A stretch of 64,000 bases of DNA from Octopus sinensis (lineage: Eukaryota), in the NCBI RefSeq assembly GCF_006345805.1, contig NC_043023.1:21204001-21268000 (forward strand), written 5' to 3'. Under the pieces are notes generated by a model. That model had not been told where the DNA came from and did not search any database. It was given only the letters and a program-made list of their open reading frames with translations. Both the position numbers and the translations under genes were made by a program. Below, piece after piece: positions 13,252 to 64,000 of the stretch; positions within the stretch are counted from its first letter, which is position 1; every line of letters starts with the position of its first letter.

Positions 13252-13451
13252 TCACTTTGCGTCTAATGACAGACATTCCATCGCAGTGAAACATTCAGCT
13301 TCTTCAAGAGCTGCACTTAATGTTGCGTGTGTCCGTGTTTCTGGGTCGCAATTTTTGAACCATTCACGAAGCATCAGGTAACCTTGTTTTACAGTGTCAA
13401 TAGACTCATCATCAATTTTCAGTTCAGTTGTATCAACTCCTAAAAAAATAG
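13252..13451 (-). CDS. Terminal exon: Death domain helices 2-6
   Basis: Acceptor tttgcAG at 13453-13452. Encodes (A)IFLGVDTTELKIDDESIDTVKQGYLMLREWFKNCDPETRTHATLSAALEEAECFTAMECLSLDAK-stop, matching the Death-fold pattern LG...ML..W.....T...L..AL. Candidate AATAAA at 13009-13004. Confidence 0.88.
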
Positions 13452-16400
13452 CTGCAAAAGACACAACAATAAGAAATAATTGCAACAACATTGACAATAA
13501 CATAAAACGCTGTGTACTGTAGGTTGTTAGGAATATAACAAACAAACTTTATCATTAGAGAAATCAAAAAAGAAATAGCTAAGAAACAGGAAAAATATAA
13601 GACATTGTTTTCTATTGACAAAAATAACAAAGAGTTTGAATTAAACGAGATTTTTAAAGAAAATTAATTGAAAATTATACTTGAGAAAATATATGGTAAA
13701 CGAGGGCAGGAAAACTTTTGTGAAGGCAAAAGTATATCAGAACCTCAAGAATTAACATTGACCTCCAACAGTGAAAGCATATGATCCATCCATTTCCTCT
13801 GCTCAATATTCTTGAAAGGGCTGTGGGGAAAGAGTCCTCAGGCACCTCCTCCATAGGGTCCTATCAGAAGCATCCATCATTAGACATTCTGCTTGTATTC
13901 TATGATGTGAAGAACTAAGACTATGGATATCATCCAACCATTTCTTTCTTGGCCTCCCCCTCGGTATCCTGTTCCATTGGTTTGACTTTGAGAACATGTC
14001 CTGTAATTCATTCCTGCAACACCCTGATCACATGTCCGAGGTACCACAGATGTGGAGGAGACGTGGCTCAACCTGGAGAGACTCCCAGATCTCTGAACTA
14101 TAAATCCTATTGAGTAACATTACTCCAAAGACCCTTTAGAGGAATCCCATATATCTGTCTTATTCTGGTAGATTTCAGACCTGGTATTCAAAGGGTCATG
14201 AAAGTACTGTCCCTCTGTGCCATCTACTACCTTGCAAAGTTCCCAAGAGGACACTAAAAATCGAATGATCAGTGATTGTCCAACAGTCGATAATTCTAAG
14301 TCAAATTCAACCCATTTCAAACTTCTCCAATGAACTCCAGGTTCAATCAATTCTACAGAGCCTATTCAGTTATTATTATGTCAGTCTCAATGAGAGATGC
14401 CACCTCCAGTTCATTTTCTGGTAAATTCCCTTAAAGGAATTCTCTGTTTTCGCCTGAGGAGAATGATAGGATTTCGCTGTGTCACCTTTATTAAATCTCT
14501 TTTTATTGAAGCATTTACAGACATATGTCATGTGGTAAAGTCATTGCAAAATGGCAATCTAAATTGGAATTATCAGCTTCCAACACAATAACCCAATAAA
14601 TAATGGCTGCAAGAAGAACCAAACTCAAAGTCTTCTGTTTGAAGAAAGATGCTTTGTTTTAGATGTTAACTTTGGTACTTGTCCTTCATTACAATAACCT
14701 AACAGTGAACCTAAAGAAAATGTAAAACAAATTCACTCACCTGTTTACCCTTAAACAATATATTTTAGTTCCCTCTTCCAAAAGATAATATTAAACGCCA
14801 TTTCTATTTTCTAGTTTATCCATTATTACCAACCATGCTAACCTCAGTGGATATTTTATGAAATATCAGGAATATCGTAAATAAAATTGTCATACAGATA
14901 ACCTATCAATGGGAAATGAGGAATGTAACTTGTTCTCATTCATTCTGACAAATAAAATAGATGAGGTGAAAGTAAAATATATAGAAATCAAATATACTCA
15001 CCCACTTGCCACCAATCACTTCCTAACCTCTTAGCCACTCTCATCAGATTCCTCTCCTTCAGAACTGGACTCTCTGAAATAAATATTTCCAAGTTTTACA
15101 ATTATTGTAAAACTTATTTATCTCTATAAATATTCTGTAGTTTATTGTTGTGGGACATTGTTATCATCAGTGGTTGGCTGGTGACCACTAGGGTTTTGCT
15201 CAGTATTTTTATACTTTCCATTGTGGGACCAGGTAATAGCTCAATATTTAGGCCCGCAACAAAATAGACTAACTTTCCGAAACTTTGTTTCTCTTTAACA
15301 GAGACATCCTACATAATCTAACAATGTTGCAATTATTTCATTTAATTATCATTTCATGAGACTGTTTCTTCTCATAGTTCTATCTCTCCTTTCATATATC
15401 TGAACCAAATCTATGACATGCGACTGTCCTCTAAACTCTAGACTTCACTAACCACCATTCTCCTCATCTTCTGCTAAAGTGCAATATCATCCAATGTGGT
15501 CTCCAAAGATCTCGTCACAAATGCATGACACACCACTTCAAGTAAAATAAACGTAATACCAGTTCTCTTTGCTGTTGGAAAATCTTGAATTTTATCATCC
15601 TACATCCCAGATCACCTGGTCATTATCAGATGCAGGGAATATTTTAAGACTCCTTAATAAAGGTGAGCAATGATCAGTTCTCCACAGATGAAACAAAAAG
15701 TGATATCAGGTGTCCTAAAACACTGCACACTTGTACAAAACCCCATTAACTACATACAACTGGACATCTACACATTAATGCAGTGAAGACATCTGAAATG
15801 GTACAAAAGGACTGATACTCAAAAATATATAAGAAACACGGGAATACAAAGTGCGAGCTCCAAATCTTTTATTTTCCAGAATGTTTGGCATATTTATTTC
15901 TTTTAACCCATCTTCGTTCTGTGACATGATCTCAATGCCTTTACTATTATTGCAAAATTAGGTAGTTTACCATCGTCGTAATAGTTTTTCAAGTTTCCCT
16001 TTAAACTTCATCAGGGTTTCTCCTGCTATTTTGACCTTCACTTGTTTCTGCTGACCTTTCACAAATGACGGGCTTCATTACCCATTTGCATTGAAGCACA
16101 TTCTTCACCAAGTTCCTCAGTCTACCCAGTTAATCCAGAACTATTTGCATATCCTTTTATTTGTTGTTACTATTGTTATGTAATCCATTAATGTCTTCTC
16201 GAGTGTTTTCCTTTGAGCCATTTCTTATCAATCTGCTGATTTAAGTAACATCTCCATAACAATCACAAACCAAATGACTGATTTTGTAGAAACTACAGCA
16301 ATTCCCGTTTCAAAATGATACCAGTCTATCGAGAAAGTTTTCCTCATGAACTGCATATTGAAATTGTTATAGCAGCTCCTCATCAGATCCTTAATCTTTT

Positions 16401-19400
16401 CTCATATATAAAACAGGTCCACTGCTTCCATCAACAATTTGTTTGCTAGAGAACCATAAACCAGATGAAATCACACAACATTCAATCCCTTTTATTCTTC
16501 TTTCCGTCTTGTATCACATCCTAGATTTAAGACACATGTTCCACACAGCCTGGAATGCCAGAGGATTCCAGTCTTCAAGATACTTTTAGTCCCATATTCA
16601 TTATTCTGTAGATTTACAGTTGATCTCTTTGTGAGTACAACCTTGTAAATCTTGCCATTTATATTCAAGGTTGAAATTAGTCTGAACTAATCAATTGGTA
16701 TTTGATTGCTGGTTTCAATGGACATTTCAAACTGTCTATGAATGGGAATCACTGCTTTTGCTTTGGATCTCCAGCATATATCCATCCAGTTCATCTTTAT
16801 TGTATTTTAGCTTTCTGTTTTCAGTATCTGCAAACAGAATTTCCGTGTAGAAGTTAAAGAGGAGCGTTTAATTTTGTTGACGACAATTTTTCTAGTGCTT
16901 TTGGAGCAAAATTGTGCCCAAGGCCCTTTTAAAGTGGTTGATGTTAGGAAAGGCACATCACCATAGAAAAGCCGGAATGTGTTCCTCATCCAATCGAGGC
17001 GGACAGTATTTGTTAATAAGAACTGACATGGATAGGAATCATCCATCCAATCGATAGGAGCATAGACAATCAGATGATAAATGATGAGGGTCATCAGTGT
17101 CTATCTTGGAGAGAGAGAGAGAGAGGACGGTTGTCTCAACATCAAACCTAATACTTTTACATGGATAAAGACTATGTTTAGGGTATGCAATGATAAATTT
17201 ATTATCAGTCAAAAAAAAAAGGCAGGGTGTTCACACAAGGAACACATTTCATTGTAAATCTGTCACATTATGAGAGATATTTGCCTAAATAGCAACAACA
17301 GCAATAACCTATCAGTAAACTTAGTAACTACATATTTTAGTCTTCCGTTTTAAGATACAGTATTAATTCTATTGTCTTCTAAATTATCCATTTTCCGAAC
17401 CATGCCAACCCCGTTGGATATTTTGTGAAATTCCATTGATATCAAAATGTCTAATAGAATTATTATACAGCTAATATTTCAGATGTAAATTAGGAATGGA
17501 TCTTGTCCTCAGTCATTCTGATAAACTACAAATACTCAGGTGAAGGTTAAATTTATAGAAATCCATGAGGTACTGTTATTTGCTACTCACTAACTGGCTG
17601 TGATGTTGTTAAGGCATCCTTCACAGAAGTTGGAGTCTTTGAAATGAATATTTTCAAGCTTTACGTTTTATAGTATAATTTCATTATAGTTATTGATAAT
17701 CAACACTTTATTATTGTGGGAAGGGCATACAGCTGTAAAACTAGTTCGTAGGGATGTGGTTGTGTACCCATGTAAAAGTTATGTTTACTTTGAGGGTAAT
17801 AAGGTGTAAAATATTAGATGAGGGTACAAGATAATGCTATGAAACTTTCAGACAGACAAGTTTAAGAGAGTTAATGGATGATAGCTGATTAATTATCATG
17901 TTAATGCAGCGTATAAACACTAACTATCAATATAGATTGTATAAAATCTGTGTGAAGAACATGTGACATTTGTTACAATTAATATGGTTGTGTCTCAGCA
18001 CAGTTGATATTATGGTAGTTCCATGAGAAACCATAGAAAAATGTAACCATTTCCAGTACTGAATACTAATGATGAATTCTTTTCTTGGTCAAATAACAAT
18101 GACCAGGTTCCATGATCTAATTTCAACAGAACAATCAAGTCGGAAGTAAAACCAAAATGTGGAAGACTGAAAACAGTGACTCTCTTACAATTGAAACCAT
18201 CTCAAAGCCAACAATTTTCAGTATAACGATGTCTATATATGGACAGTAAACGTTATACAAACATCGTAACAAGCGATAATTATATATATATAGTTAGAAA
18301 AGTGTTGTAAGTTCAAGTCACACTGGAATCTCATACGTTCATTCCTTTCCATGTATTGCATATGCTAGCATCAATGTTTTGTTCAAATGTGAACATATGT
18401 TCTCTGTTCAATATGAATGTTATCAAAATCACTGAACCGGTTTTCACAATCAATATTATTATACTGAGCTAATATGTTATACCAGACAGGAAACTACTGT
18501 AACAATCTAAGACAAAGAATTATGATGAGTTACTGGAAGACAGCATCATCATCCTCATCATCAATATTCAAAATTTGTTTTCCAAGCTGGAATGGGTTGG
18601 AAATCTTGACAGGATCTGACAAGCCAGACAACTGCACCAGGCCCCAGATGGTTTCTTTTGCATGGTTTTCTACTGTAGGATGCTCTTACTGATGCCAACC
18701 ACCTCACAAAGTGTACGTGGCCCCTTTTTATAAAGCACAAGTACTGGCATATTTAGCCAAAAGACATGTAAGACAAAGACCCCACAGCCAGGAGAGGGGG
18801 TATTGCAAATTTCTCTCCCCGCATCCTGATACTTTTGTCATCACATTCCCTTCTCACCTCCTGAAAATGTCATCAGCTTCAGTGAACCAAAACATCATAG
18901 AATAGTGAGGACCGTCTAATTATATAGAATGTAACACAACTTGATTACTACTTGTGCTATAATTAAATGCTCCCAGAACACACTAGGAAGTGGTTGGTGG
19001 AAACTAGGAAAGATGACACCACAAGTTTGAAAGGAACGTTTGATATTGTTGGGGAATTGATGATCATTTCTAATGCTTGTGCAACAATAAAATATACCCA
19101 GGACCCTTTATAAAGTGGTTGGGGTTAGAAAGGGTCTACCACCTTAGAAAAGCTGCAATGTTTAAGTGAGATGTTTTCCTCAACAAATGACGGTTGGCAG
19201 TAATTTCAGATACAACTGACTTGGACAGTGATGACCCACCTAGTGTATGGGAGCATGGAGAGCAGATGAGAAAAGATGAAGATGATATCATTTATTGTAT
19301 TGAAACTTTTAACCAGCATCTTTCTTGAAAAGACGGAGAGAAAGAGCATGAGTGAGAGAGAGAGAATGAATGAGTACAATGAGATGACAAACAGGGCGAA

Positions 19401-22400
19401 TATTCTCCTTAACGGGAGAGAACCGTTTCAGGGTTTATATTTAATGTTTGTATCTTTCTTTCTGCGAGTGAATGAGTAACAGATGTTTGCATAAAGTACA
19501 TTTATTGGATATTCATGTTGTTGTAGAAGAACAGAATTTCTTTATAGCTAAGCATTCAAATAAAATGTAGCAGTGGTATCTGTTCTCGGTCATTCTATTG
19601 ACCAAAATAGCTCAGTAAAAGCTAAACTTTATAGAAATCAATTATGTAATGTCATTCTATACTCAGCACGTGGCTCTTCTACTGTCTGGACCTCTTTGTC
19701 TTCAAATATTGGCCTTGCTGAAATAAATATTTCCAAGATTATACTTGATTATACTTGTGACCAAATGACAAAATTTACTCTATTGTGTCTTCTAATTTGA
19801 ACATTATTACCAACAGTGCTAACCTCAATGGGTATTTCATAAACTCACAGTAAATCGATATCTTTAATTCAATTATTATACAGATAATCGTTCAATTAGA
19901 AAATAGGAATGGAAGCTGTTTTCAGTTATTCTTTCAAGCACAATATACTCGGGGAAGAAAACCTTACAGAAATCAATTGGGAACTATTATTTTATACTCA
20001 CCTATTACCTGAGATGCAGCCCCTAATTCCTGACATGTAGCCTCTGTTTTTACACGCCTGTCCTCAAACTTTGGAGCCTCTGAAATAAATATTTCCAAGT
20101 TTTACATTTAAAAATAAACTTTCTTTATCTTTATTTTTATTAAACTCTATCTTGTTATTGTGAGACATTCAATTTCTGTCGTTACTGGTCAAATGTTGAC
20201 CATTATGGTTTTGGTCAATATTTCTGTACTTTCTACAGTGGTCCCATGTAATAGCCCAATATGTCCACAATAAAACAGACTAGCATTCCTGAATCCACCC
20301 TCCCCTCCTCTCTCTCTCTCTCTCTAAAAACACATTAAATATTCTAACAATGTTGCAATTATCTCATTTAATTAACACTTGATAACAGTTTTCTCTTAGC
20401 TTTGTCTTTCTTTTCTTATAACTACCAAATCCATGGCATGGCACAGTCCTCTCATCTCTAGAGTTCACTAATCAACTCTCTAATTAAGTAAAACTGAGCC
20501 CATAAAGACATGTCCTTTATGTGCATACCCTCCACTCCGCACACAATCTGTCCCCTAAAAACATCTCCACAAGTCAAATTGCACACATCCTTCCCCAACA
20601 TGATCCCTAACAAAATATAAAATGTAAGGTGAGGGTACATGATGTTCCTATGACAAAATAAGTTTACATTTCAGACATACAACTGTAAGAGAGTTAATGA
20701 ATTATAGCTTATTAATTATCATGATAATTGGGTATATATGTGATACAATGGCACTGTGCTTGACGGTGCAATACTAGATATCAATATAGATTGTATATAA
20801 TCTGAGTAAAGAACATATAGCCTTCATTACAATCAATATGATTGTGTCTCAGCACAGCTAATATTATGGTAGTTCCATGAGCAAACGAAGAAAGATATAA
20901 CCAAGTCCACTGCCAAATACTAATGATTAATTCATTTCCTGGTCAAATAACAATGACCATATTCTATTAAATAATTTGAACCCAACGATGTCAGTGTGCA
21001 CACAATGCAGAGTGAAGAGGCCTGAGAGAAGTGTTAGACATAATAAGTATCAGATGTGGTGTACAAGAGAGACAACTGCACTGGTATGGTCATGTGTATG
21101 GATGAGGAGAGCTGTGGGAGAAGTGTACCACCCCTCACAGTGGAAGGAATCCGTGGAAAGGGGTGACCCAGGAAGACAGGGGATGACGTGGTGAAACGAC
21201 CTTCGAACGTTGGGCCTCACAGAGGTAATGGCAAGAGACAGAGACCTCTGTAAATATGATGTGATTGAGAAGACCCGGCAAGTGAAGTGAGATCAAAGCT
21301 GTAGCCTATACCAGTGTCGCATAACCAGCCCCTTTTAAAAGTACCCTTGAATCACAGAGTGATAAGTTGCGCTTGAGAAGAATTTCTGAATCAAGTAAAA
21401 CCAAAAACCAGAAATCACAAATCAAAATCAAATGAAGATCGAAATCAAAATGCAAATTGTAATTATGGCCGATGCCAGTGCCGCCTGGCTGGCACCCGTG
21501 CCGGTGGCACGTAATAAGTAACATTCAAACGTGTTTTGTGGCCAGTGCCCGCCTGACTGGTTCCCTGTGCTGTTGGCACGTAAAACAGCACCCACTCACA
21601 CTCTCGAAGTGGTTGGCGTTAGGAATGGCATACATATGTGGAAACCTTGCCAGATCACATTGGAGCCTGGCGCAGCCTACTGCCTTGCCAGTGAATTCGT
21701 CCGACTCATGCTACTATGAAGACGGACCGAAAAATGATGATGATGATGCGTTCCGTCACCAAATGACAATATTAACTCTATTGTGTCTTCTAATTTGAAC
21801 ATTATTACCAACAGCATTAACCTCAATGGGAATTTCATAAACCCTCAGTAAATCGATATCTTTAATTCAATTACTATACGGATAATCGTTCAATTGGAAA
21901 ATAGGAATGGAAGCTGTTTTCAGTTATTCTTTCAAGCACAATATACTCGGGGGAAGAAAACCTTACAGAAATCATTGGGAACTATTATTTTATACTCACC
22001 TATTGCTTGAGATGCAGCCCCTAATTCCTGACATGTAGCCTCCGTTTGTACACACCTGTCCTCAAACTCTGGAGCCCCTGAAATAAATATTTCCAAGTTT
22101 TACATTTAAAAATAAACTTTCTTTATCTTTATTTTTATTAAACTCTACCTTGTTATTGTGAGTCATTCAATTCCTGTCGTTACTGGTCAAATGTTGACCA
22201 TTATGGTTTTGGTCAATATTTCTGTACTTTTTACAGTGGTCTCATGTAATAGCCCAATATGTCCACAATAAAACAGACTAACATTTCTAAATCCACCCTC
22301 CCTCTCTCTCGTTCTCTCTCTCTCTCTAAGAATACATTAAATATTCTAACAATGTACCAATTATCTCATTTAATTAACACTTGATAACAGTTTTCCCTTG

Positions 22401-25400
22401 GCTTTGTCTTTCTTTTCTTATAACTGTGCCAAATCTATGGCATGGCACTGTCCTCTCATCTCTAGAATTCCTCTCTAATTAAGTGAAACTGAGCCCATAA
22501 AGACATGTCCTTTATGTGCATACTCTCCACCCCGCACACAATCTGTCCCCTAAAAAACATCTCCACAAGCCAAATTCCATATACCCTTCCCCAACATGAT
22601 CCCTAACAAGGTGAAAAATGTTAAGTGAGGGTACACGATGATGCTATGTCAAAATACGTTTACATTTCATACATACAAATGTAAGGGAGTTAATGAATTA
22701 TAGCTTATTAATTATCATGATAATTGGGTATATATGTGATATAACGGCACTGTGCTTGACAGTGCAATACTAGATATCAATATAGATTGTATATAATCTG
22801 AGTAAAGAACGTATAACCTTCATTACAATGAATATGATTGTGTCTCAGCACAGCTAATATTATGGTAGTTCCATGAGCAAATGAAGAAAGATATAACCAA
22901 GTCCACTGCCAAATACTAATGCTTAATTCATTTCCTGGTCAAATAACAATGACCATATTCTATTAAATAATTTGAACCCAATGATGTCAGTGTGCACACA
23001 ATGCAGAGTGAAGAGGCCTGAGAGAAGTGTTAGACATAAGAAGCATCAGATGTGGTGTACAAGAGAGACAACTGCACTGGTATGGTCATGTGTATGGATG
23101 AGGAGAGCTGTGGGAAGAAGTGTTACACCCTCACAGTGGAAGGAACCCGTGGAAGTGAGGTGACCCAGGAAGACAGGGGATGACGTGGTGAAGCGACCTT
23201 CGAACGTTGGGCCTCACAGAGGTAATGGCAAGAGACAGAGACCTCTGTAAATATGATGTGATTGAGAAGACCCGGCAAGTGAAGTGAGATCAAAGCTGTA
23301 GCCTATACCAGTGTCGCATAACCAGCCCCTTTTAAAAGTACCCTTGAATCACAGAGTGATAAGTTGCACTTGAGAAGAATTTCTGAGTCAAGTAAAACCA
23401 AAAACCAGAAATCACAAATCAAAATCAAATCAAGATCGAAATCAAAATGCAAATTGTAATTATGGCCGATGCCAGTGCCGCCTCGCTGACAACCGTGCCG
23501 ATGGCATGTAATAAGTAACATTCAAACGTTGTTTGTGGCCAGTGCCGCCTGACTGGTTCCCTGTGCCATTGGCACGTAAAAAGCACCATCCGAACGTGGT
23601 CAATACCAGCCCCCACTTCAACTGGCTCCTGTGTGGGTGGCACGTAAAAAGCACCCACCACACTCTCGGAGTGGTTGGCGTTAGGAATGGCATACATATG
23701 TGGAAACCTTGCCAGATCACATTGGAGCCTGGCGCAGCCTACTGCCTTGCCAGTGAATTCGTCCGACCCATGCTACTATGAAGACGGACGTTAAACGATG
23801 ATGATGATTATGATGATGATGATGCGTTCCGTCACCAAATGACAATATTAACTCTATTGTGTCTTCTAATTTGAACATTATTACCAACAGCATTAACCTC
23901 AATGGGAATTTCATAAACTCTCAGTAAATCGATATCTTTAATTCAATTACTATACGGATAATCGTTCAATTGGAAAATAGGAATGGAAGCTTTTTTCAGT
24001 TATTCTTTCAAGCACAATATACTCGGGGGAAGAAAATCTTACAGAAATCAATTGGGAACTATTATTTTATACTCACCTATTGCTTGAGATGCAGCCCCTA
24101 ATTCCTGACATGTAGCCTCCGTTTGTACACACCTGTCCTCAAACTCTGGAGCCCCTGAAATAAATATTTCCAAGTTTTACATTTAAAAATAAACTTTCTT
24201 TATCTTTATTTTTATTAAGCACTACCTTGTTATTGTGAGACATTCAATTCCTGTCGTTACTGGTCAAATGTTGACCATTATGGTTTTGGTCAATATTTCT
24301 GTACTTTCTACAGTGGTCTCATGTAATAGCACAATATGTCCACAATAAAACAGACTAACATTTCTAAATCCACCCGCTCTCTCTCTCTCTCTATCTATCT
24401 CTCTAAGAACACATTGAATATTCTAACAATGTACCAATTATCTCATTTAATTAACACTTGATAAGAGTTTTCTCTTGACTTTGTCTTTCTTTTCTTATAA
24501 CTACCAAATCCATGGCATGGCACTGTCCTCTCATCTCTAGAATTCACTAATCAACATTCCTCTCTAATTAAGTGAAACTGAGCCCATAAAACATGTCCTC
24601 TATGTGCATACTCTCCACCCCGCACACAATCTGTCCCCTACAAGACATCTCCACAAGCCAAATTCCATATACCCTTCCCCCACATGATCCCTAACAAGGT
24701 GAAAAATGTTAAGTGAGGGTACAGGATGATGCTATGACAAAATAAGTTTACATTTCAGACATACAATTGTAAGAGAGTTAATGAATTATAGCTTATTAAT
24801 TATCATGATAATTAGGTATATATGTAATACAATGGCACTGTGCTTGACGGTGCAATACTAGATATTAATATAGATTGTATATAATATGAGTAAAGAACGT
24901 ATAACCTTCATTACAATGAATATGATTGTGTCTCAGCACAGCTAATATTATGGTAGTTCCATGAGCAAACGAAGAAAGATATAACCAAGTCCACTGTCAA
25001 ATACTAATGCTTAATTCATTTCCTGGTCAAATAACAATGACCATATTCTATTAAATAATTTGAACCCAATGATGTCAGTGTGCACACAATGCAGAGTGAA
25101 GAGGCCTGAGAGAAGTGTTAGACATAATAAGTATCAGATGTGGTGTACAAGAGAGACAACTGCACTGGTATGGTCATGTGTATGGATGAGGAGAGCTGTG
25201 GGAAGAAGTGTTACACCCTCACAGTGGAAGGAATCCGTGGAAAGGGCTGACCCAGGAAGACAGGGGATGACGTGGTGAAACGACCTTCGAACGTTGGGCC
25301 TCACAGAGGTAATGGCAAGAGACAGAGACCTCTGTAAATATGATGTGATTGAGAAGACCCGGCAAGTGAAGTGAGATCAAAGCTGTAGCCTATACCAGTG

Positions 25401-28400: not shown

Positions 28401-30220
28401 CAAGAAGGAGAAACATACACCTAATCTCTTTGTTAAACATTGTTGCTGATAATTCCTAATTTTAACTTCACAGTTCACCAGAATGTCATCTCATTCAGGA
28501 TATATTTGAAGGTTTCATGATCTGGTTGCTTGACAAACAAAACTGTCTCTATTAGCCTTAATATCCTCCAATTACAAACATAACAACATGGAATTGTGTG
28601 TTAAAGTCTCTCAAACTAGTGACATCTAATTTTACTCCTTTAAAATATTCTACTGAATTTAATACTTTACCAAAGATGACACTGATGTCCTTGTAAGTAC
28701 TGTTGTATTTACTTATCTTCTAACAACTCATAATTAATTATAGTGTTGATGGAGATTTATTGATACTTCAGTTACTCACTAATTATCTTGCAGAATCCTC
28801 CATTATCTTTATGTTGCAGACTACAACCCTCTTGAAGTGTGACATGTTTCCTACTTGGATAAGGTCAATGTTTAGTGTATGTAGTGTGAGAGATATACTA
28901 TTACAGAGAACAGACACTAGGAACACCTTTTATCATAAATCTGCCAGATTATGGCAGACCTCTGCCTACATAACAACATGAAGTATATTATTCTACACAA
29001 TAAGGGCAGTGGGACAATGAGGACAAACAGACAGATCAGCAAAGAATATTCTTACCAACTCGACCTCTGCCTGTTATTACAGGTTTTAAACACTTCAGAC
29101 ATTGTTGAAGTGGAATGTTTGAACATTCTTCACATGTCAGAAGGTGTTCACAGGGATGAACTTTTGTTGTGGCCGCTTTATTTCTGCACAGCAAACATCT
29201 GTGGACAAAACAGAAACATCCAATCAATAACATTCATTTATAACAAATATTACATTATTTACATGTTCGGAATAGAGAATATTATAAGATACATCAGTAA
29301 CTACCAAGAGTAGAGCAGAAATTCTTCTTTAAACAATTACATACATACAGATATTTGTGTAGTTAAATGGCATGCTCACACACACACACACATACATACA
29401 TACACACACATGCATACATACATTGATAAATGTTTGTCTTGACCCTGATACATCATAGAAATTGGTTGACACACAGTGAACTACATATATTCCAGAAATA
29501 TATTTCACTTCTAACATCGAACTCATTTCTTCTGAACAAATATATCTACACAGGTTTCTTTATATACACATACTTTATTATATACATTTCGTCACCACAG
29601 ATTAGCAGAAGAAGGTTCCAGTACTGTAGAGTGGCAGGAATAGCCCGAAACCAGACCTGGTCTGCTGGTCCTGTTGCTATAAGATGGTAGGGGTTTGATC
29701 CCCTGCTCGCAATTAATCGGATGCACCTTTGCATCGTTAATTAGCTAGAGGAGGTGTTCTCTTGGGGTTAAACATTCACAGTAGAGTCCATTCGAACAGA
29801 TATTCATGTTGGCGTGCCTACGAATATTACTTATATATATTTTTGTCCAACCCGTGCTAGCACGGAAAACGGATGTTAAACGATGATGATGATGAGGATG
29901 ATATATCTATCATATATATATATATATGCGGAGGCGCAATGGCCCAGTGGTTAGGGCAGCAGACTCGCGGTTGTAGGATCGCGGTTTTGATTCCCAGACT
30001 GGGCATTGTGAGTGTTTATTGAGCGAAAACATCTAAAAGCTCCACGAGGCTCCAGCAGGGGGTGGTGATCCCTGCTGTACTCTTTCACCACTCTTTCTTC
30101 TGTTGGCCTGCTCGCTTAGCCAGCGGGGTGGCGTCATTCGAAGGCTAAAACAATGTGAATGCATTGTGACCAGTGATGTGTAACTACATCTGATGGACTG
30201 GTCGGTCACGTGATCACTTG

Positions 30221-30276
<56 letters not shown>

Positions 30277-33200
30277 GTGTATGCATGATAGGTTTCGGCC
30301 AGTATTAGCGCAGGTCATGTTTAACGTAATCCCACTACCGGGCGAATCAGGATGCGGACAACATAACCCACTCGAGGAGAGAGTTGCTGTTTACGGGGAC
30401 ATATCCTGGTGTTGGTGTTTTATCCGGGATTTCTTGAAGGATATTTCAAAATACTTCTTGAACTTTATGGGGGTCTTTTTCTGCTTTAATGTATTTTGGT
30501 GTAATGCTAAATGGAGTGGGTCCACTTGAGGGGAAATAATTTTGCCGTATTGTTGTTAAGTGATGCGAGTTTGATTTATGCTGTGGGCAGATAATACGGG
30601 GCCCAGGCCTTGGGTATATCTTAAAGCTGATGCCAACATCATTTGGGCAATGCTGATGAGATATTTTCCACCATGATTTTGGGAGGCTTTATTATATGTA
30701 TCGTGCATGTAGTTCTAGTTTTCTGTCCCTTATTTTGCCCCTTTCCAATAATATCAGCTGCGCTCTGTAGACTTCTTCTTCTTCTTCTTCTTATTATTAT
30801 TATTATTATTATAATAACAACATTCACATAAACGATTATTTGTAAAAGCAAATAAAATCTTCTGAAGCTTGTCAATTGAAGAAAACAGATCAATATTTAT
30901 ACAATCCAAAAATCAATATCTATGAACAATAGGCGCAGGAGTAGATGTGTGGTAAGTAGCTTGCTTACCAACCACATGGTTCTGGGTTCAGTCCCACTGA
31001 GTGGCATTTTGGGCACGTGACTTCTACTATAGCTTCGGACTGACCAAAGCTTTTTGAGTGGATTTGGTAGAGGGAAACTGAAAGAAGCCCGTCGCATATA
31101 TATATATATATATGTGTGTGTGTGTTTGTGTGTGTATTTGTCTGTCTGTGTTTGTCCCTCCACCATCGCTTCACAACCGATGTTGGTGTGTTTATATTCC
31201 CGTAATCTAGCGTTTCGGCAAATAAGTACTAGGCTTACAAATAATAAGTTCTGGGGCCGTTTTTTTCGACTAAAGGCAGTGCTCCAGCATGGCCGCAGTC
31301 AAATGACTGAAACAAGTAAAAAGTAATATTTGAATTTCAACAGACAAAGAAAGCTTTGTATATTCACTAAGGGGGAAATGTGTCTGCTTCTTAAGTAGCA
31401 AATACAGAGAGATGTATGGCAAAGAAATTGCCAAATCTTATAAAATACGGGAGTGAAAGGCGACTAAAACACCTAGTAATGGTATATGTGTTACTTGAAT
31501 TATTTACGTTTCCAGGCAGTTTTTTTTCTTCTATGAAGATATGTGGCAATATTCCATCAGTATTTGCAGAAATATAATATATACACTGTTGGTGTGTGTT
31601 TGTAGGTTATTTTTCTATGAAATCATTTGAAATATTGACTGATTCGGACTTAGAAGAGTGAGAAAAAGTTGTTGGTAGACAGATAAATTCCACTTAATTC
31701 TAAGTAACAGTTTCAAAATGGAATTCATTCACTTCATTATTTAGATCTATATTTTCCTATTGATCACAAATCTTTAAAATAGGGAACGAAGAGGAGTAGG
31801 TGGGGGTGGACAGTGAAGTATAAATGTCAACACTACGAATCATGTGAATGTAATCAAAATCGTGTTCTTTCTTTGATCTCCTAACAACTGCATATTGTTT
31901 ATTGTGTGGCCTTTGACAAAGACACTAGCGACAGTATAATGTATATCGTAGAATTGAAACGAAATAAACATATAAATATGATTATATACAAAATAGGAAA
32001 TGTACTGGTTTATCCGTTCCATAGCCAGGAAATACTTACTGTGGTTGTAAAAATGTTTCTAAGTTTTTTCTCAAATTTGGGTCCTTAATGAGGTCCAATG
32101 GTCTGTTATTTTTGTTGTTTTTATGGTGAAAGTCAGCTCCCTGGCTGGCGAGATATCTCGCAACCACTATACCAGAGAGACTTCTTTTCTTTTTTAGGTT
32201 GGTGGCAGTGCAGCACTACAAATAATGAAATATAAAATGATGACAATATTACACAAAGATTCATAACAAATGCCCCTAATTACACAAAAGTTCATCTAAA
32301 TTTACTCATAGGTTGTTTATCCACTAATTAAAGCAATTACAAAGTATTGAGTTCCTACATAATCTTTAATTGAGTCCATTTCCCATTTTTATGCTTTTAC
32401 TTTATTTTCAACACTGAGACACCCTCTAAATATATTGTCATTACATTGAGCAGGACAAACCGTATTGATTAACATCAAGCTCATTGATAATTAATGAGTA
32501 AATATTTACTTGTCAATCACAAATATCACAATATATTCAATAGAAAAGTCAAATATAGGAAGAACAAACCAACAAGAACCTATCTATATAATTGGCTTGA
32601 TAAAGGCGACCGTGTGGCCATAAGAAAGAGTATTGTATATATAAATATAACACAACATGAGAAGATAGAACATAAGTTATATCAGAAACAAAAACACCTA
32701 TAACATAACAAAGTCAATACCACACAGACATGACCAAACATATCAATAATGTTTCCATAATTAAGCAAGAAGCATCTTTGAATGATGACGGTGAAGTAAA
32801 GGAAGCAGGAATTAGTGTCAAGTCAGAAAAGTAATGGAGGAGTATTTTTAATCACGGACAAGTGAATTTTGGAAGAGGCGACTCGCAAGTCTACCAGATA
32901 GATGGAAGAGCATTGTAGAAAATGAAGGAGAACATGTTTTAGATTAACAGAAAAAAGTACTTTGTTTATCTTAATTTTGAAAAATATAAGAATTATAAAA
33001 AACTGCTTCATTTTTGAGATGACAGCAAAAAGTCCAGTAGAATTGAAGTCCATACTGTTGCTGACATCAGATAGCCGAATACAGTGAACGGGCTTTAAAC
33101 AGCATTTTACAAGATATATACTCAAACTCAAAATCATTACTTGTGTGTGTATGTGTACATGAGTGTGTGTGTGCCTAAGTACAGAACTTAAATACATGAA

Positions 33201-33741
33201 ATCTCACTAAGGACCATGCTTTATTGTATTCATTCTCTAGTGTCCTAACATTGAACATTCTTATGACATGTCCACAAGAAGTCAGTGGATTCATGTCGTG
33301 TGCAAGAAGTAGGATAGAGAGCAGTTTCACTCAGAATACTTCATAGAATGGACTGGCTGTATTTACCATGGCACCAGCACTATAAAGCTCAGACATCTCT
33401 TCTATCCTGCATCATTGTTAATTGAGAATAATATCTCCTCTATTAAATAGTCCACTTCTCCGTCTCATTGTGATGGCTGTGTTTATATGTCCAACAACTG
33501 AGAAGGGTCACCTCTCGACCGTGGTGAGACGACATCTTTGAGAGGGAAAGGAGATGGAATACTTTTCGTTACATAATATCACTCGGGTCATAAGGGGAGA
33601 CTGGATCACGGAATGGTAATGGAGGATGGGGTTGATAGGGGAGAATTGATACGTGACACACAAAGCTTGTCTGTCTGTCTGTCTGTCTCTCTCACACACT
33701 CCCACAAAGACTCACAAATACACAAATTCACACACACATAT

Positions 33742-33797
<56 letters not shown>

Positions 33798-34527
33798 CAT
33801 CATCATCATCATCATCGGACGTTAAATGATGATGATGATGATGATGATGATATAAATATACACACACAAACAATTTAAAAACTTACTTCGTTTAGTAAAT
33901 CCATGGGTGCACCCTCGGAATTAAACACTTCTGTTTCCATGGCAAGGTGCAAACAGCTGTTACCTTCACCATCAACAGCATTTATGCTTGCACCCAGGGC
34001 TATTAGCTTGTGTGTCATTCCGAGGTGACCCCGGGAAACGGCTTCAAGCAATGGTGTCATTTTATTTTTGTTCCGAATATCCAACTGAAGTGAACCCTTT
34101 GTGGAAGTAAAAATAGAAAATGAAAATTTACATGAAAATCAGGATGGATATCAATGTGTCATTATTGTCTTCTACTGTATACTTGATCAAACTGATCATG
34201 TACATTTGATGTTTGCCCGTAAAATCAACCTTCGTAAGATCCTCTAGATGTTGCTTTGAGAATGTGTTCTAGACAGGATAAAGATGTCCTAAATAGATTG
34301 TTTCAGCTTAATCTACCTTTATTCCTAACTATAGTAAGTTTTAGGGGAGCTGAACACGAGTGAACACATGATTAACAGATCAAGACTAGTAAAGAAGAAT
34401 TAAAATTTCTAAAGTATACTTTTGATGTTGTTATAATTAATAAGAAGTTCATAAAACTGTTGAGGTGGTTAGTGTCCACCCCCATGAAATTAATGCGTGT
34501 GCACACACACATACACAGAAACACACT

Positions 34528-34562
<35 letters not shown>

Positions 34563-37092
34563 AGAGAGAGAGAGATTTATATACATTACTGTTGGATATA
34601 TAAATATATATGTTGAATGAGGAATATGTAAAATGAAGTTCACGAGAAAATTTATTCATCACAACAATTGGTTTGACCCATCTTGCATCGATTCCTTGTG
34701 GGTGGGAGAGTTCTCGGTATCGCTTGGTATGCTGTTGTTGTCAGTAGGTTCTTGGATTATAGCATTATAGCCAACAACCTCCTGGCAACAACATGCCAAG
34801 CGAAACCGAGAATATTTAGTGAGGTTTCTTCTGTAAAACAAGACACCAGATGCAATGAATCTGTACCGGAGGATGCAACACATCCAAACCACAAGGGTCC
34901 GATGCAAAATGGGTCAATACTCCATTTCCCAATCCCCCATTTGTAATAAAACTCAAAAAACCCTGAAATTCCTGAGGTAGACTAAGTGACAATTATATCA
35001 CAACGTGTGTGTGTGTGTGTGTGCAGACATACATACATACATATATAGAGAAACTGTTCACAGTTGTGGGAATTAGCTGTCCAGCGGATGTTGACATAAA
35101 GTGAAAAATAGAATATCTGGAAATAAACTGAATAATGACATACCTACGTATATATTTGTTTTGTTTGCAGAAAAGATAAATCCGGAGAAGAAGCACACTC
35201 TAAGATGTAGAGCAGTGTATATTTTAAAACCGGGGAAGGCCAGTTTCCGGGATTACCCTTGGTCTCCGGTCCAAAAAGGATTTAGCTTCATGGCGTATCA
35301 TTAGACCCCAAAACCTGTTGGCCTAAGACCTCTTCTAAATATGGAGGGTAGAAAAGCCCTTCGCCTCATACGCCTAATCACGTCCAATAGCTTTTCCAGC
35401 TGCATACGGGTGTATAGTTCGTTGGATGACGTGGGGATGTTATTGCTAGAGTAGCCGAGGCAAATTCTTTCATATTTATGGGAGACCCGTGGTTTCAGTG
35501 AATATGTAGAAACGCTTTTCTCTTTTCTTTTCCTCTCTCTCTCACATTTTCCTTTCTATCTTTCTCTCTCTCTATGTCTCTTAGTATTTGTTCTCTCTTT
35601 CTCTTTCTTTCCTTCCTCTCTTTTTATCTCTCTTTTCTTTTATCACTTTCTCTCCTGCTTTACTTTTCTCTCTTCTTTATCTCTCTCCTTTTTTCCCCCT
35701 CTTTCTCTCTTTGTCTCTCTCTTCCTCTTTCTCTCTGTTATCTCTTTTCTCTGGCAATTTTTCTCTTCTCTTTTTCTCTCTTCCTCCCTCTCCCTCTCTT
35801 TCTCTGTCTCTTTGTCATTTCCTTTTTCTTTTCTTTCCCTCTTTTCCTTTTCTCCCTTTAAGGGACTTACTTTTTTCTTTCTCTCCTCTCTTGCCTTCTC
35901 ACTTTCTTTTCTCTCTTCTCCCTCTTTCTTTTCTCTCCTCTCTTGCCTTCTCACTTTCTTTTCTCTCTTTCTCCCTTTCTTTTCTCTCCTCTCTTGCCTT
36001 CTCACTTTCTTTTCTCTCTTTCTCCCTCTTTCTTTTCTCTCCTCTCCTGCCTTCTCCCTTTCTTTTCTCTCTTTCTCCCTCTTTCTTTTCTCTCATTCTC
36101 TTTATCCCTTTTTCGTCTCGTTATCCATCTCTTTCTCATTTCTCTCTCTTTCACTGTTTGTTTTTCCTCTTTCTTCCTCTCTCTCTCTCTCTCCCTTTTT
36201 CTCTCTTTATTTCTCTCAGTCCCTTTTTCTTCTCTTACCTTCCATCTTTCTCTCTTCCTCTTTTTCTATTCTCGCTCTCTCCCTCTCTGCTTCTTTTCTC
36301 TCTCTTTTTATTTTCTGCTTTTCCTTCTCCCTATCTCTCTCTATCTTTTTCTTTTCACTCTTTCGCTCGTTTTCTTTGTCTATTCTCTCTTTCTCTCTCA
36401 TTTCCTCATTGTCTTTTCTCTCTCTCTTTCTTTTCTCTCTTTTTTTCTCTCTCTCTCTCTTTCTTTTCTCTCTTTCTTTTCTCTCTTTCTTTTCTCTCTT
36501 TCTCCCCCCCCCTTCTTCATCTCTTTCTTCCTCTTGTTTCTTTTTCTCTCTCTCTTTCTTTTCTCTCTTTCTTTTCTCGCTTTTCTCTCCTTCTTTCTCC
36601 CTCTCGTTTTATTTTTATCCTTCTTCCTCTCTCCCACTCATTCATTTCTCTCTTTCTTTTCTCTCTCGTTTTCTTTTTCCAATCTCATTCTCTTTATCTT
36701 TTCTCTCTTTTTTTCTCTCTCTCTTTCTCTGTTTCTTTTCTCTTTTCGTCTTCTCTATAGTTCTCTCTATATTTTCTTTTCTTTCTTCTATTTTTCTCTT
36801 CCTCTCTTCTTTTTTCTCTTTCTTTTTCTTTCTCTCTTCTGCTTGTTTCAGTCATGAGACTGTGGCCATGCTGGGGCTCCTCCTTGATTTTGTCTTTTAT
36901 GTGTGGTACCTTTTCTGTCTGATGAGCAGCAACCTCTAGCCCTCTTTTGCTTAAGTGCTAAGTAACAGGGATGCAAATACACCAACACCGGTTATCAATT
37001 AGCAGTTGGGGACACACACTAACATAGATACACATGCATACACACAAACCCCACTCAATAATACACACACATCTGCTTGGCAGTATACACAC

Positions 37093-37123
<31 letters not shown>

Positions 37124-38655
37124 AGAGTTAATAACACCCATAAGGATGTGCTTTATCTATTCACCAAAGTGAATGGTTGCCTTGTCCAGGAGAAACCAAT
37201 GTTGTCAGATGTTATCCCTCGTTCATCGGATGTTTCGACTCTGAAACGTAACACCCTACCATTGGTGGGTCAACAGAGGTGGCCAATTCACTGCTCCTCA
37301 ACTCCTCAAGCCTTCCAGCGTTAATCTTCTCTCTTACACCAAAGCCAGCAAAAGGCTCTTTCAGTTGCCTCTCCCATCCGTGCACACCCACTCTTCCCTC
37401 CTTACCTCTCATTACAGTTGCTGTAAAAATCCTCCATGCCGACTGGACAAAGAATTCCCTACAGCCAACCTCCACTAGGAAAATCCATACCTGCCATACC
37501 TTCTCCCTGCAATTCTGCAGAATGTTCTTATATCTGTCACACTTCCGTTCATGGGCCTCGTTACAACCCGCTCCCCACGTGACTGTTCGTTCAATTATGA
37601 TAATTTTCTCAGCCTTTTCAGACCACAGGACCACATCAGGCCTCAGGGTTGTATGGACAACCTGGGGAAACTGCAATCTCTTCCCTAAGTCTACCTTCAT
37701 ATCCCATGGTTGAGACCCTTGCAGCAAGCTATGTTTTGCTTTTGCTGGCTTTACTGGTTTTTCTCCCTCTTTCACGAACTTAATTGTGGCAGATATCTTC
37801 CCTTGGTGATGATGTTTCTTACACCTTTACTGCTCCAGGTTGTGAGCAAGTATTTGTATCTGCCTTGAGAAAGTGTTATTCTTCACCCTGCCAAGATGTG
37901 TGCCAGAGTGCCCCTTTCCCACAAAGTCTACGCAGCTGGTCTTCCCTCAAACCTTATCTGTGCAGGTTTGATGGTGTCGGGAGTGTGTCATACACCGCTC
38001 GATGCAGGAAGGAGATGTGCAAAGGTTCCAGCCTCCACAGGTCAGTCCATGTGAGCTTCCTCTCAGGGAGATCCCATTTAGTCCATACACCCAGAGATAC
38101 CAACTCCACAGCTCTTGATTTCCTTTTAGCTTCCTCCTGGTTCCACATTGCTTTCTGAGTCATAGCCCGCCTCTCCCTGGTGTCTGCTTTCTTCTATTGT
38201 TGGAAATAGGAAGACCCAAGTCCCTTGCGACCCCAACATGTAGCTCCAATTATGGCGCGTAGCTCCAGCATGCCTTCAGCCTGAGCGACAGCGGTGGTAG
38301 TTGCCCACACTTTGTGGTAATACCTGCATGTCTGACAAGCTCGTCCTTAGAGTCTCTGTACATCATTACATTACATTTCGCTACTTTAAATTCCTCCACT
38401 ACAGATGACAGGGAAAAATGTCGATGATGAGGATTAGAGAAAAGAGTGAAGAAAGAAATGAAATATCATGGAACAATATATGTGGCTACTTTTCATATTG
38501 TGTATAAAACATTTCATATTGTGTATAAAATAATAAACAATCAAATTTGAGAAGGCAATAAACAGAACAACTTACTATTGTTGGATCCTTTCTTATTAAT
38601 TTTTTAAACCCTTCAATGTCATCCTCCGAAATTTTCTGTCTGATATTCGCTATGT
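13252..38655 (-). CDS. Spliced gene: ankyrin repeats - RING-HC - tandem VQT mini-exon repeats - Death domain (Mind-bomb/MIB2-derived putative E3 ligase); 5' end incomplete
   Basis: Exons 38576-38655, 33887-34084, 32040-32215, 29056-29198, 26158-26235, 24077-24154, 22000-22077, 20002-20079, 15002-15073, 13252-13451. All have AG acceptors, all but the last have GTRAG donors, and phases join (1-0, 0-0, 0-2, 2-1, 1-1 x5, 1-stop) into one open frame of 1181 nt (~393 codons). Confidence 0.85.
13760..14090 (-). mobile_element. Degenerate RTE-type LINE 3' fragment
   Basis: Peptide PRGRPRKKWLDDI...ASDRTLWRR. Confidence 0.65.
15002..15073 (-). CDS. Exon: Death domain helices 1-2
   Basis: tttcAG / GTGAGT, 72 nt, phase 1-1, (E)SPVLKERNLMRVAKRLGSDWWQV. 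Joins the terminal exon to give L..VA..LG.DW..VA.FLG. Confidence 0.88.
17591..17638 (-). pseudogene. Degenerate mini-exon copy (acceptor AA instead of AG)
   Basis: Flanks homologous to the other modules; donor GTGAGT intact, acceptor tttcAA; 48 nt phase 1-1, TPTSVKDALTTSQPV. Confidence 0.6.
19667..19717 (-). pseudogene. Mini-exon copy with CT donor (possible in-frame cryptic GT 3 nt upstream)
   Basis: tttcAG acceptor, RPIFEDKEVQTVEEPR, then CTGAGT at the homologous donor position; GTGCTG after 19670 would keep phase 1. Confidence 0.6.
20002..20079 (-). CDS. Repeat mini-exon 4 (EAPKFEDRRVKTEATCQELGAASQVI)
   Basis: tttcAG / GTGAGT, 78 nt, phase 1-1, open. Confidence 0.8.
22000..22077 (-). CDS. 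Repeat mini-exon 3 (GAPEFEDRCVQTEATCQELGAASQAI)
   Basis: tttcAG / GTGAGT, 78 nt, phase 1-1, open. Confidence 0.82.
24077..24154 (-). CDS. Repeat mini-exon 2 (GAPEFEDRCVQTEATCQELGAASQAI)
   Basis: tttcAG / GTGAGT, 78 nt, phase 1-1, open. Confidence 0.82.
26158..26235 (-). CDS. Repeat mini-exon 1 (GAPEFEDRCVQTEATCQELGAASQAI)
   Basis: tttcAG / GTGAGT, 78 nt, phase 1-1. Differs from copies 2 and 3 by a synonymous AGA/AGG change. Confidence 0.82.
27910..27960 (-). pseudogene. Mini-exon copy with AT donor (ESPKFEEKGVQTVAETV)
   Basis: tttcAG acceptor intact, 51 nt phase 1-1, open; donor reads ATGAGT instead of GTGAGT. Confidence 0.62.
29056..29198 (-). CDS. Exon: RING-HC finger (Mind-bomb type)
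   Basis: ccacAG / GTAAGA, 143 nt, phase 2-1. CLLCRNKAATTKVHPCEHLLTCEECSNIPLQQCLKCLKPV gives C-x2-C...PC-x-H-x3-C-x2-C...C-x2-C. Confidence 0.9.
29928..30217 (+). mobile_element. tRNA-derived SINE (third family)
   Basis: Head GGAGGCGCAATGGCCCAGTGGTTAGGGCAGC..GACTCGCGG..GGTT.GATTCCCAG with A/B-box-like motifs; partial reverse copy at ~5450-5510. Confidence 0.75.
30290..30640 (-). mobile_element. Degenerate CR1/L2-group LINE 3' fragment
   Basis: Minus-strand peptide GPTPFSITPKYIK...ILQEIPDKTPTPGYVPVNSNSLLEW resembles Crack/Daphne RT C-termini (from recall). Confidence 0.5.
30931..31323 (+). mobile_element. tRNA-derived SINE
   Basis: Full family consensus from GGCGCAGGAGT to CAGTCAAATGACTGAAACAAGTAAA. 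Confidence 0.88.
32040..32215 (-). CDS. Exon: last ankyrin repeat / linker (MIB-like)
   Basis: tttgtAG / GTAAGT, 176 nt, phase 0-2. CCTATNLKKKRSLSGIVVARYLASQGADFHHKNNKNNRPLDLIKDPNLRKNLETFLQP resembles the Mind-bomb 'A.FLA..GADL..KN.KG.TPLDL..DPNL' segment. Missed by the ORF track. Confidence 0.88.
33887..34084 (-). CDS. Exon: two ankyrin repeats
   Basis: cttcAG / GTAAGT, 198 nt, phase 0-0. LDIRNKNKMTPLLEAVSRGHLGMTHKLIALGASINAVDGEGNSCLHLAM. Confidence 0.92.
35515..36845. repeat. ~1.3-kb polypyrimidine/polypurine (CT-rich) low-complexity tract
   Basis: Almost exclusively C/T on the + strand; source of the spurious FSL-rich ORFs. Confidence 0.95.
37140..38410 (-). mobile_element. HERO-like (R2-group, REL endonuclease) non-LTR retrotransposon 3' fragment, disrupted
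   Basis: GVWTKWD..RKLTWTDLWRLEPLHISFL.RAVYDTLPTPSNLHR, then WDMKVDLGKRLQFP..TTLRPDVVLWS...E.TV.W...EAHERK..RY...VEVGCR.F (PD-(D/E)xK REL domain). Confidence 0.85.
38576..38655 (-). CDS. Most 5' coding exon found (N-terminal ankyrin cap)
   Basis: ttcaaaAG / GTAAGT, 80 nt, phase 1-0. IANIRQKISEDDIEGFKKLIRKDPTI reads into LDIRNKNKMTPL like an ankyrin helix-loop. Confidence 0.65.
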
Positions 38656-44590: not shown

Positions 44591-44629
44591 TGTGTTCCTT
44601 GTATATGTATATATAAATATACCTTCAGC

Positions 44630-45817: not shown

Positions 45818-45853
45818 CTTTCTGTCGAAGAGCGTAGGTTCTAAACATCAAAG
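45818..45853 (+). ncRNA. Degenerate minimal hammerhead relic
   Basis: cttt-CTGTCGA-a-gagc(gtag)gttc-TAAAC-ATC-aaag: stems I and II present, core mutated; probably inactive. Confidence 0.35.
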
Positions 45854-45860
45854 ACTTCCC

Positions 45861-49318: not shown

Positions 49319-49372
<54 letters not shown>

Positions 49373-63775: not shown

Positions 63776-64000
63776 GGCGTATCAATCGGTCATCTAGCAG
63801 TCGGAAGCGATGAAATAGAAGAGGTGGACAGCTATGTCTATCTCGGTCAAGAAGTGACTAGAGGTGAAAGATGGAGAATGAGATGTTGCGAAGGTTAAGA
63901 GCAGGATGGAGAGCTTTCACCTCACTGAAGGATTTGCTGAAGGTATATTTATATATACATATACAAGTAACACACTCACAGGCAAGGAACACAGGTACAA
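63776..64000 (+). repeat. Inverted near-identical copy of 44565-44789
   Basis: Reverse complement of 44565-44789 with about 3 substitutions, including the junction between the old and young RTE pieces. Confidence 0.92.

Follow-up and report, generated by a model that had tools for sequence, protein, structure and literature searches.

The window considered here is a 64,000-nucleotide stretch of Octopus sinensis DNA (RefSeq assembly GCF_006345805.1, contig NC_043023.1, positions 21,204,001 to 21,268,000 of the forward strand), and between its positions 13,252 and 38,655 the minus strand carries a gene that combines ankyrin repeats, a RING-HC finger, a linker of short repeated exons and a Death domain. 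We hold, with somewhat better than even confidence, that the locus is a member, truncated at its 5' end, of an expanded Octopus family in which the ankyrin-RING1 part of Mib2 is joined to a Death domain of two exons, and that full-length members of this family likely serve as varied sensors within the cell, signalling by assembly of their Death domains. The sensor role is likely because their ankyrin binding face diversifies fast. What is new is this face-specific diversification of the ankyrin exons in full-length paralogues; the single gene is a damaged copy and the family is the finding.

Immune recognition in cephalopods is poorly known, and a large, polymorphic cytosolic family that pairs a diversifying face with a Death domain is a direct candidate for it. 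In the databases the family lies scattered under names such as 'MIB2-like', 'ankyrin-3-like' and 'secG-like'.

A fast-diversifying ankyrin face

Face positions were set from the pattern of designed ankyrin repeat proteins (DARPins), with the register taken from solved DARPins. The samples were the best 30 of 96 matches to ankyrin exon 4 (28 unique and open, giving 14 disjoint pairs) and 23 matches to ankyrin exon 2 (22 unique, 11 pairs). With synonymous divergence (dS) measured exon-wide, the ratio of nonsynonymous to synonymous change (dN/dS) in exon 4 is 2.67 at the 10 strict face codons (Fisher P 1.4e-6) and 0.51 over 38 framework codons, rising to 5.52 at the residue after His. For the first repeat of exon 2, the ratio is 5.42 at 3 face codons (P 2.6e-8) beside a framework value of 0.47. 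Counting single-base differences only, nonsynonymous and synonymous changes in the face stand at 41:5 in exon 4 and 14:0 in exon 2, the corresponding framework ratios being 0.48 and 0.52. A codon model fitted to the face alone places omega of exon 2 at its ceiling of 50, and the face tree is 4.6 to 9 times as long as that of the framework. No diversifying excess is seen in exon B, which the window copy keeps (1.24, P 0.31), and none was found in exon A, exon C or Death exon 2. Full-length paralogues show excess amino-acid change at the concave-face positions of exons that are deleted in the window copy, a signal that the earlier note, made from the window sequence alone, did not pick up. The pairing of a diversifying repeat sensor with a death-fold effector is found in the family, more weakly for exon 4 by the codon model, and not in the truncated copy.

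Variation falls at the x positions of x-D-x-x-G-x-TPLH-L-A-A-x-x-G, as it does across solved DARPins. Unlike these, the octopus array is natural and genome-encoded, varies at the residue after His as well, and is linked to a signalling domain. In DARPins six positions are randomised (PMC9611651).

Derivation from Mib2 and a Death-domain gene

The best non-family match of the RING exon (exon D) is the Mib2 locus. A query of the last ankyrins plus RING returned 17 long matches, and the 6 that have 92-98% cover and include the RING are all Mib2-type. Octopus Mib2, located at C26:20.27-20.32 Mb, agrees in phase with the family at five exon ends (the end of exon A, both ends of exon B and the start and end of exon C), four of them placed at the same codon; a phase-1 intron follows its first RING as in the family, the position of the Mib2 RING acceptor not being fixed. 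Since these intron positions are common to both, the ankyrins and first RING derive from Mib2, which narrows to one gene the Mind bomb resemblance that an earlier note, made from the window sequence alone, had pointed out. Two other sources were tried and ruled out: an IAP origin of the RING, given the Mib2 best match and common introns, and TANC/rolling-pebbles ancestry, with 25-30% identity and mostly 69% cover.

What the family has in common with MIB2 is thus the ankyrin array, the ankyrin insert and cap, the first RING-HC and the intron positions. The substrate module is missing: MIB-HERC2, ZZ and REP (PF06701/PF00569/PF18346) occur in no family protein scanned, and the proteins begin at the homologue of exon A. 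Also absent are the terminal coiled coil and the catalytic last RING of Mind bomb, in whose place stand cassettes and a Death domain, the single RING corresponding to Mib2 RING1. To these differences the family adds dozens of copies and a diversifying ankyrin face. The family derives from Mib2 without being a Mind bomb. A second Mib2-like paralogue, with both RINGs and the Mib2 exon layout, was seen at G000:C9915:22,155-38,446 (L048-L050), G000 being the O. sinensis assembly.

Three megabases from Mib2, on the same contig, lies a kinase-less gene that NCBI names RIPK1-like (P0140). Its Death domain is split into a 75-nt phase 1-1 exon and a last exon, the family counterpart of the former having 72 nt, and it groups with the family's in a quick tree that is unresolved inside and does not name the donor gene. 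The exon layouts suggest a fusion at the phase-1 intron, in which the coiled coil and second RING of Mib2 would have been replaced by a Death cassette. Such an event would illustrate a route to a new architecture: two genes of one chromosome joined at a phase-1 intron and the discarded half of an E3 ubiquitin ligase reused as a binder. The RIPK1-like adaptor has a neighbouring duplicate (G000:C26:23,375,000-23,410,000; L219-L221, L229), and the Ile/Gly/Asn-rich stretch before its Death domain resembles a RHIM-type motif, for which it is a candidate.

The Death domain itself is genuine and lies under the Pfam threshold in the window copy (19.5 bits, cut-off 22.6). Three divergent members (P0063, P0064, P0076) pass PF00531 at 34.8-45.1 bits, Atlas calls the region Death at 0.91, and Foldseek returned Death domains in all 10 best rows for the model of this copy (best E 0.018, none <0.001), a poor model (mean pLDDT 46.5) used for the Death region only. 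P0100 from O. bimaculoides, an adhesion G protein-coupled receptor (GPCR) with leucine-rich repeats (LRR), ends in a Death domain 39-46% identical to the family's; no clear orthologue of that domain was found in G000. One mention of the octopus LRR adhesion GPCR Death domain occurs in the part of PMC6408891 covered.

Family size, distribution and mosaicism

At least 50 loci in G000 carry the family exons in colinear order, a count that includes haplotigs, and small contigs may be haplotigs. Death exon 2 has 125 matches there (150 scored), 44 of them at identities of at least 83%; exon C has 130, exon B 117 and ankyrin exon 4 has 96. Exon C and a Death exon stand in order on one strand at about 55 places (by eye), 24 of which are on chromosome-scale contigs, and 32 of 40 fetched stretches contain an intact RING together with Death exon 2. 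At the protein level, family matches were Octopus in 38 of 38 cases in one search and in 4 of 4 in another. Identities were assigned to 20 of 150 representative matches: 12 belong to the family (O. sinensis, O. vulgaris, O. bimaculoides), a further 3 are Octopus Death proteins outside it, 4 come from other animals and are Death proteins of different architecture, and 1 is unnamed. No squid or cuttlefish member was seen among these 20, and word searches are insensitive; the family appears restricted to Octopus, its absence elsewhere being weakly tested. The earlier proposal of lineage-restricted exon shuffling is supported.

RING and Death exons have been swapped among paralogues: their types are mixed among loci, with one RING type joined to four Death types and that of the window copy to three. 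For the domain exons, dN/dS is 0.40-0.46 when distant copies are compared and 0.58-1.12 for close pairs. The predicted fold of a full-length member consists of 11-12 ankyrins, the RING, a disordered linker and the Death domain (pLDDT 86; linker <50); a sequence search of the PDB and a fold search with this model returned only ankyrins. In a subfamily on G000:C27 and C29 (e.g. C10718, C10179, C10645), the ankyrin array is instead one long exon of near-identical repeats, with frames of up to 1317 codons, which suggests a second route to sensor variation.

The truncated copy in the window

The earlier note described a hidden gene of ten spliceable exons and some 393 codons with ankyrin, RING-HC and Death content. 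The ten minus-strand exons all have AG/GT ends and splice into an open product of 396 codons plus stop (internal stops, 0), which includes RefSeq isoform X2 (P0004), identical at every letter. Ankyrin (PF00023, E 1e-7) and RING-HC (PF13920, E 1e-6) pass Pfam from single exons, the Death domain being identified through relatives, fold matches and Atlas. The gene is not hidden, as RefSeq holds five isoforms of 297-375 residues for Octopus sinensis, misleadingly titled 'E3 ubiquitin-protein ligase MIB1-like/MIB2-like' (accessions of the annotated locus: XP_036369820-823, XP_029652185, XP_029652188). The gene is one of dozens, and on none of the five isoforms is there a precomputed Death call. The interval holds three further cassette-type exons (E, J and G in Table 1), each with one mutated splice site.

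Joints between family exons D-F, F-H, F-J, J-H and H-I are present, at or adjoining the predicted sites, in contigs of four runs, each from its own study, taken to be RNA by guess and matched at 93% likeness, which allows paralogue reads. The contigs diverge from the window sequence at many positions; for these two reasons they show splicing of the family, not of this copy. Furthermore, a copy at G000:C1:41.738 Mb that has no introns and many stops spans the ankyrin cap, the cassettes and the Death domain without interruption and is a DNA record of a spliced RING-linker-Death mRNA. Between them, the family contigs and the processed copy bear out that RING and Death exons are joined in transcripts. 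Processed, intronless and stop-ridden copies of family mRNA also form tandem arrays at G000:C1:41,735,000-41,763,000 (L108) and C1:107.08-107.10 Mb.

Two lesions mark this copy. All 13 close paralogues (L119-L131) have an ATG that lies two bases inside exon A, where four identical copies, this one among them, read ATA, so exon A is probably untranslated here. The interval from exon A to exon B is longer by 12.2 kb in paralogue C9052 and by 10.1 kb in C12424, with the junction here near 35,510, and the deletion took with it three or more N-terminal ankyrin exons, which are those that are hypervariable. The first in-frame ATG, at 34060, is preceded by an out-of-frame upstream open reading frame of 8 codons in exon A, and from it fewer than 2 ankyrin repeats plus the cap remain. 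Contig C6414 has the identical deletion junction; because it does, and because four ATA exons are identical, the short form has been duplicated at least once. The much shortened ankyrin stack noticed earlier is therefore real in this copy, but it reflects a deletion specific to it and not the design of the family. The inverted copy at the end of the window has two F cassettes against four here and may be the other haplotype. Fragments of exon A occur in a tandem array at G000:C29:12,694,000-12,708,000.

Cassette exons and LC8

The linker is encoded by small cassette exons, of which 40 stretches yielded 103, 85 with intact splice sites, in a search with a profile built on the intron that precedes exon H (Death exon 1). 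All 103 are phase 1-1 and in register with exon H and, as their flanking introns also align, the cassettes are duplicates of Death exon 1. Codon 9 is Leu in exon H (22/23) and Val in the cassettes, where Gln and Thr follow; a short linear motif has arisen in this way from a duplicated helix exon. F cassettes number 2, 4, and 6 or more among near-identical copies, the locus at G000:C8584:1-20,000 (L046-L047) having a near-identical 3' half with at least six.

The resulting motif resembles anchors of the dynein light chain LC8, which binds TQT, IQT and VQT within disordered chains (PMC12017986), and a KGVQT peptide of LCA5 binds LC8 with an affinity of 2.6 uM (PMC9481538). A relaxed LC8 pattern is found in 26 of 55 unique cassettes and strict KxTQT in 2 of 55 (KETQT); members from O. 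bimaculoides retain an LC8-like motif. When octopus LC8 was modelled with residues 160-212 of P0002, the complex scored 0.67 and the best control 0.22, with residues 167-177 in the groove, between-run contact agreement of at least 53% and partner pLDDT of at least 44. Among solved pairs 51 of 78 attain the mark used for such complexes, as do 2 of 108 among mismatched ones (eukaryotes, 39/65 and 2/126), and the mark is uncalibrated for peptides; because of this, and because LC8-peptide complexes are already solved and may be remembered, the model shows likeness only. A motif shuffle control (11/17 against a mean of 0.31) was set aside, the cassettes being related by descent. That the cassette linker binds LC8 has about an even chance. 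Dynein light chain (PF01221) matches occur at 22 places in G000, with at least 4 intact intronless LC8-like frames.

Known multivalent LC8 clients such as ASCIZ and LCA5 (PMC12017986, PMC9481538) likewise have a disordered linker with repeated K/R-x-V/T-Q-T, and the KGVQT of LCA5 (PMC9481538) comprises the same five residues as octopus cassettes. The octopus linker differs in that each motif is a phase 1-1 exon derived from Death helix 1, in a number that varies between copies, and its binding is predicted.

Does the RING act as a ligase?

The earlier note regarded the protein as an E3 ligase, and the principal rival to the sensor reading, an unlikely one, is that family members are true E3s: their diversified ankyrins would bind substrates, RING1 would have regained binding of the conjugating enzyme (E2), the Death domain would direct them to death or immune complexes, and clustering through LC8 or Death domains would substitute for the coiled-coil dimer. 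In its favour, all eight zinc ligands are intact in C3HC4 spacing, and dN/dS values of 0.44-0.67 indicate purifying selection on the RING exon. Moreover, mammalian MIB2 acts on RIPK1 and cFLIP (PMC5912950, PMC7815719). Ten of 32 family RINGs carry a CP(I/M)CR loop, not present in the Mib2 RING1s seen and matching the loop by which MIB1 RING3 touches E2 through P993, I994 and R996 (bioRxiv 10.1101/2024.03.01.582834). Because of these ten, E3 activity may have been gained in some members.

The full loop is missing from the other 22, the window copy among them, whose RING ends in CLKCL with Leu, Lys and Leu at the E2-contact sites. In human MIB1, a fragment comprising ankyrins and RING1-2 is mostly monomeric and does not self-ubiquitinate, activity residing in ccRING3 alone, and the second RING of MIB2 is the homologue of MIB1 RING3 (bioRxiv 10.1101/2024.03.01.582834). 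A MIB2 RING1 mutant leaves cFLIP ubiquitylation unaffected (PMC7815719), and cFLIP and RIPK1 are bound by the N-terminal module of MIB2 (PMC7815719, PMC5912950). The family has thus retained Mind bomb parts that in mammals are required neither for ubiquitin transfer nor for binding of cFLIP and RIPK1. Since the retained parts are non-catalytic in mammals and this copy's RING is without the E2-contact residues, an E3 ligase by inheritance is not supported and the label is doubtful, and the window copy is probably not an active E3.

The sensor reading and its alternatives

In the sensor reading, the ankyrin groove would bind diverse ligands, probably pathogen-derived or damage-linked. Binding or clustering would bring Death domains together and draw in an adaptor that itself has a Death domain, for example the RIPK1-like protein of octopus or FADD, the latter being reported from molluscs including a cephalopod (PMC11463336). 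LC8 on the cassette linker might dimerise the chains, tuned by cassette number. The family would on this account have a role in immunity. The window copy, having neither the variable exons nor the exon A ATG, would yield a RING-linker-Death protein of 297-375 residues. It is likely either a decoy or adaptor that has no sensor or a duplicate in decay. More tentatively, and as a possibility that we consider distinctly less probable than the family-level reading above, Octopus may have its own NTPase-free intracellular receptors: a 'DARPin library' of dozens of recombined, Mib2-derived ankyrin sensors with RIPK1-type Death domains, in which LC8 cassettes born from the first Death helix would set an oligomerisation threshold and sensor-less copies would act as decoys.

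Several observations weigh against the sensor reading. The face was defined after variation around TPLH had been noticed in protein models, and the selection tests used the best 30 of 96 matches and 23 of 23. In the face-only codon model omega of exon 4 is 1.11 for the strict face and 1.61 with the residue after His included, a result to be read knowing that recombination among paralogues disturbs such models. Close copies are near neutral, hence many loci may be decaying or haplotigs. The splice-joint contigs may be paralogue reads from runs only guessed to be RNA, and the members with an active-looking CP(I/M)CR loop (10/32 RINGs) may be E3s. As to LC8, the motif codons are no better conserved than their neighbours (P 0.99, 0.81, 0.059), Lys replaces the anchor Gln in 13 of 55 cassettes and an intact motif is lacking in 19 of 40 stretches.

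Some of these points would also suit an improbable alternative, in which the family grew mostly through duplications in repeat-rich regions while constraint was relaxed, face variation comes from gene conversion and tolerance, and the window locus is a transcribed pseudogene. Near-neutral close pairs, the loss of the ATG, the deletion and three dead cassettes here, processed and broken copies, many matches on small contigs and, from one codon model, an omega close to 1 for exon 4 are what it would lead one to expect. Relaxed constraint, however, predicts dN/dS near 1 and not face counts of 41:5 and 14:0 beside a framework near 0.5, and the frames stay open in three species. Still less probable is a face serving non-immune recognition (neuronal identity, germ line, self/non-self or control of selfish elements) in which case the Death domain would be a scaffold, the role it has in ankyrins. 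The fold matches do include ankyrin Death domains, and the LRR adhesion GPCR described above bears the same Death type, but the nearest Death-domain gene of the same exon layout is the RIPK1-like adaptor, and strong diversifying selection acting on a binding face, together with birth-and-death turnover, is characteristic of conflict between host and pathogen.

Comparison with known systems

As a sensor family, the octopus genes work like NLR-type receptors, for instance the Patiria NACHT-Death protein, in that both couple a variable repeat sensor to a Death effector and both show lineage-specific expansion and domain shuffling. In the octopus family, however, the sensor is an N-terminal ankyrin array and the Death domain is C-terminal, and a NACHT or NB-ARC NTPase is present in no member among those scanned with Pfam. 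By analogy the family would function like an NLR-type receptor but, having no NTPase, it is not one. ANKDD1A/B similarly end an ankyrin array in a C-terminal Death domain (Atlas rows at 0.92); they have no RING, whereas the octopus ankyrins trace to Mib2 via intron position. The BIR-DD-RING IAPs of bivalves (PMC8917759) are another molluscan expansion in which a Death domain is paired with a RING-HC, but with BIR in place of ankyrins, a C-terminal RING and an IAP origin; IAPs are least expanded in Octopus (PMC8917759). No published description of the octopus family was found in the full-text literature searched, which lacks most subscription papers, and the expanded-family tables of genome papers may list it. 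The part of an octopus haemocyte transcriptome paper covered (PMC4199593) mentions neither Mib nor ankyrin.

Features of the window

Table 1. Exons of the truncated gene and related features, in window coordinates
Feature	Position	Strand	Remarks
Exon A (ankyrin N-cap), homologous to the first coding exon of the family	38576..38655	-	Start ATA, probably untranslated here
Exon A 3' boundary			Phase 0, same as a Mib2 exon
Junction of 10-12 kb deletion, edge of CT-rich repeat	35500..35530	-	Alignment to paralogues C9052, C12424
Exon B, last two ankyrin repeats	33887..34096	-	Pfam Ank; RefSeq start is first in-frame ATG, 34060
Exon C, Mib2-type ankyrin insert and C-cap	32040..32215	-	Phase 0 / phase 2 ends common with Mib2
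Exon D, RING-HC, homologue of Mib2 RING1	29056..29198	-	PF13920; zinc ligands intact; C7-C8 loop CLKCL
Cassette exon E (KGVQT)	27910..27960	-	Donor mutated to AT; likely silent; in none of five RefSeq isoforms
Cassette exon F1 (DRCVQT, LC8-like motif)	26158..26235	-	Phase 1-1; F1-to-H joints in contigs of 3/4 runs
Cassette exon F2	24077..24154	-	Within ~2.07-kb tandem unit of exon and intron
Cassette exon F3	22000..22077	-	
Cassette exon F4 (VKT; anchor Gln lost)	20002..20079	-	
Cassette exon J (DKEVQT)	19667..19717	-	Donor CT here; used by RefSeq X1, X3, X5
Cassette exon G	17591..17638	-	Acceptor mutated to AA; likely silent
Exon H, Death domain exon 1	15002..15073	-	72 nt, phase 1-1; cassette source; flanking introns align with E, F, G introns
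Exon I, Death domain exon 2 and stop	13252..13451	-	
Orphan frameshifted Death exon 2, other paralogue type	56001..56192	+	
Start of inverted whole-gene copy	63776..64000	+	98.7-99.4% identical; directly after 100-N gap

The donor of exon J is CT in 11 of 12 copies and GT in one; the RefSeq models that use this exon may be built on reads of a paralogue, or splicing may take place at a GT lying four bases upstream. The exon J joint in the family contigs may likewise stem from a paralogue. No cassette or H exon lies near the orphan Death exon, in window positions 45001-57000. A long interspersed element (LINE) frame of 785 codons, with endonuclease and reverse transcriptase by eye, occupies 42270-44624 on the minus strand, and more LINE fragments lie at 37,200-38,300 and inside the 2-kb tandem units.

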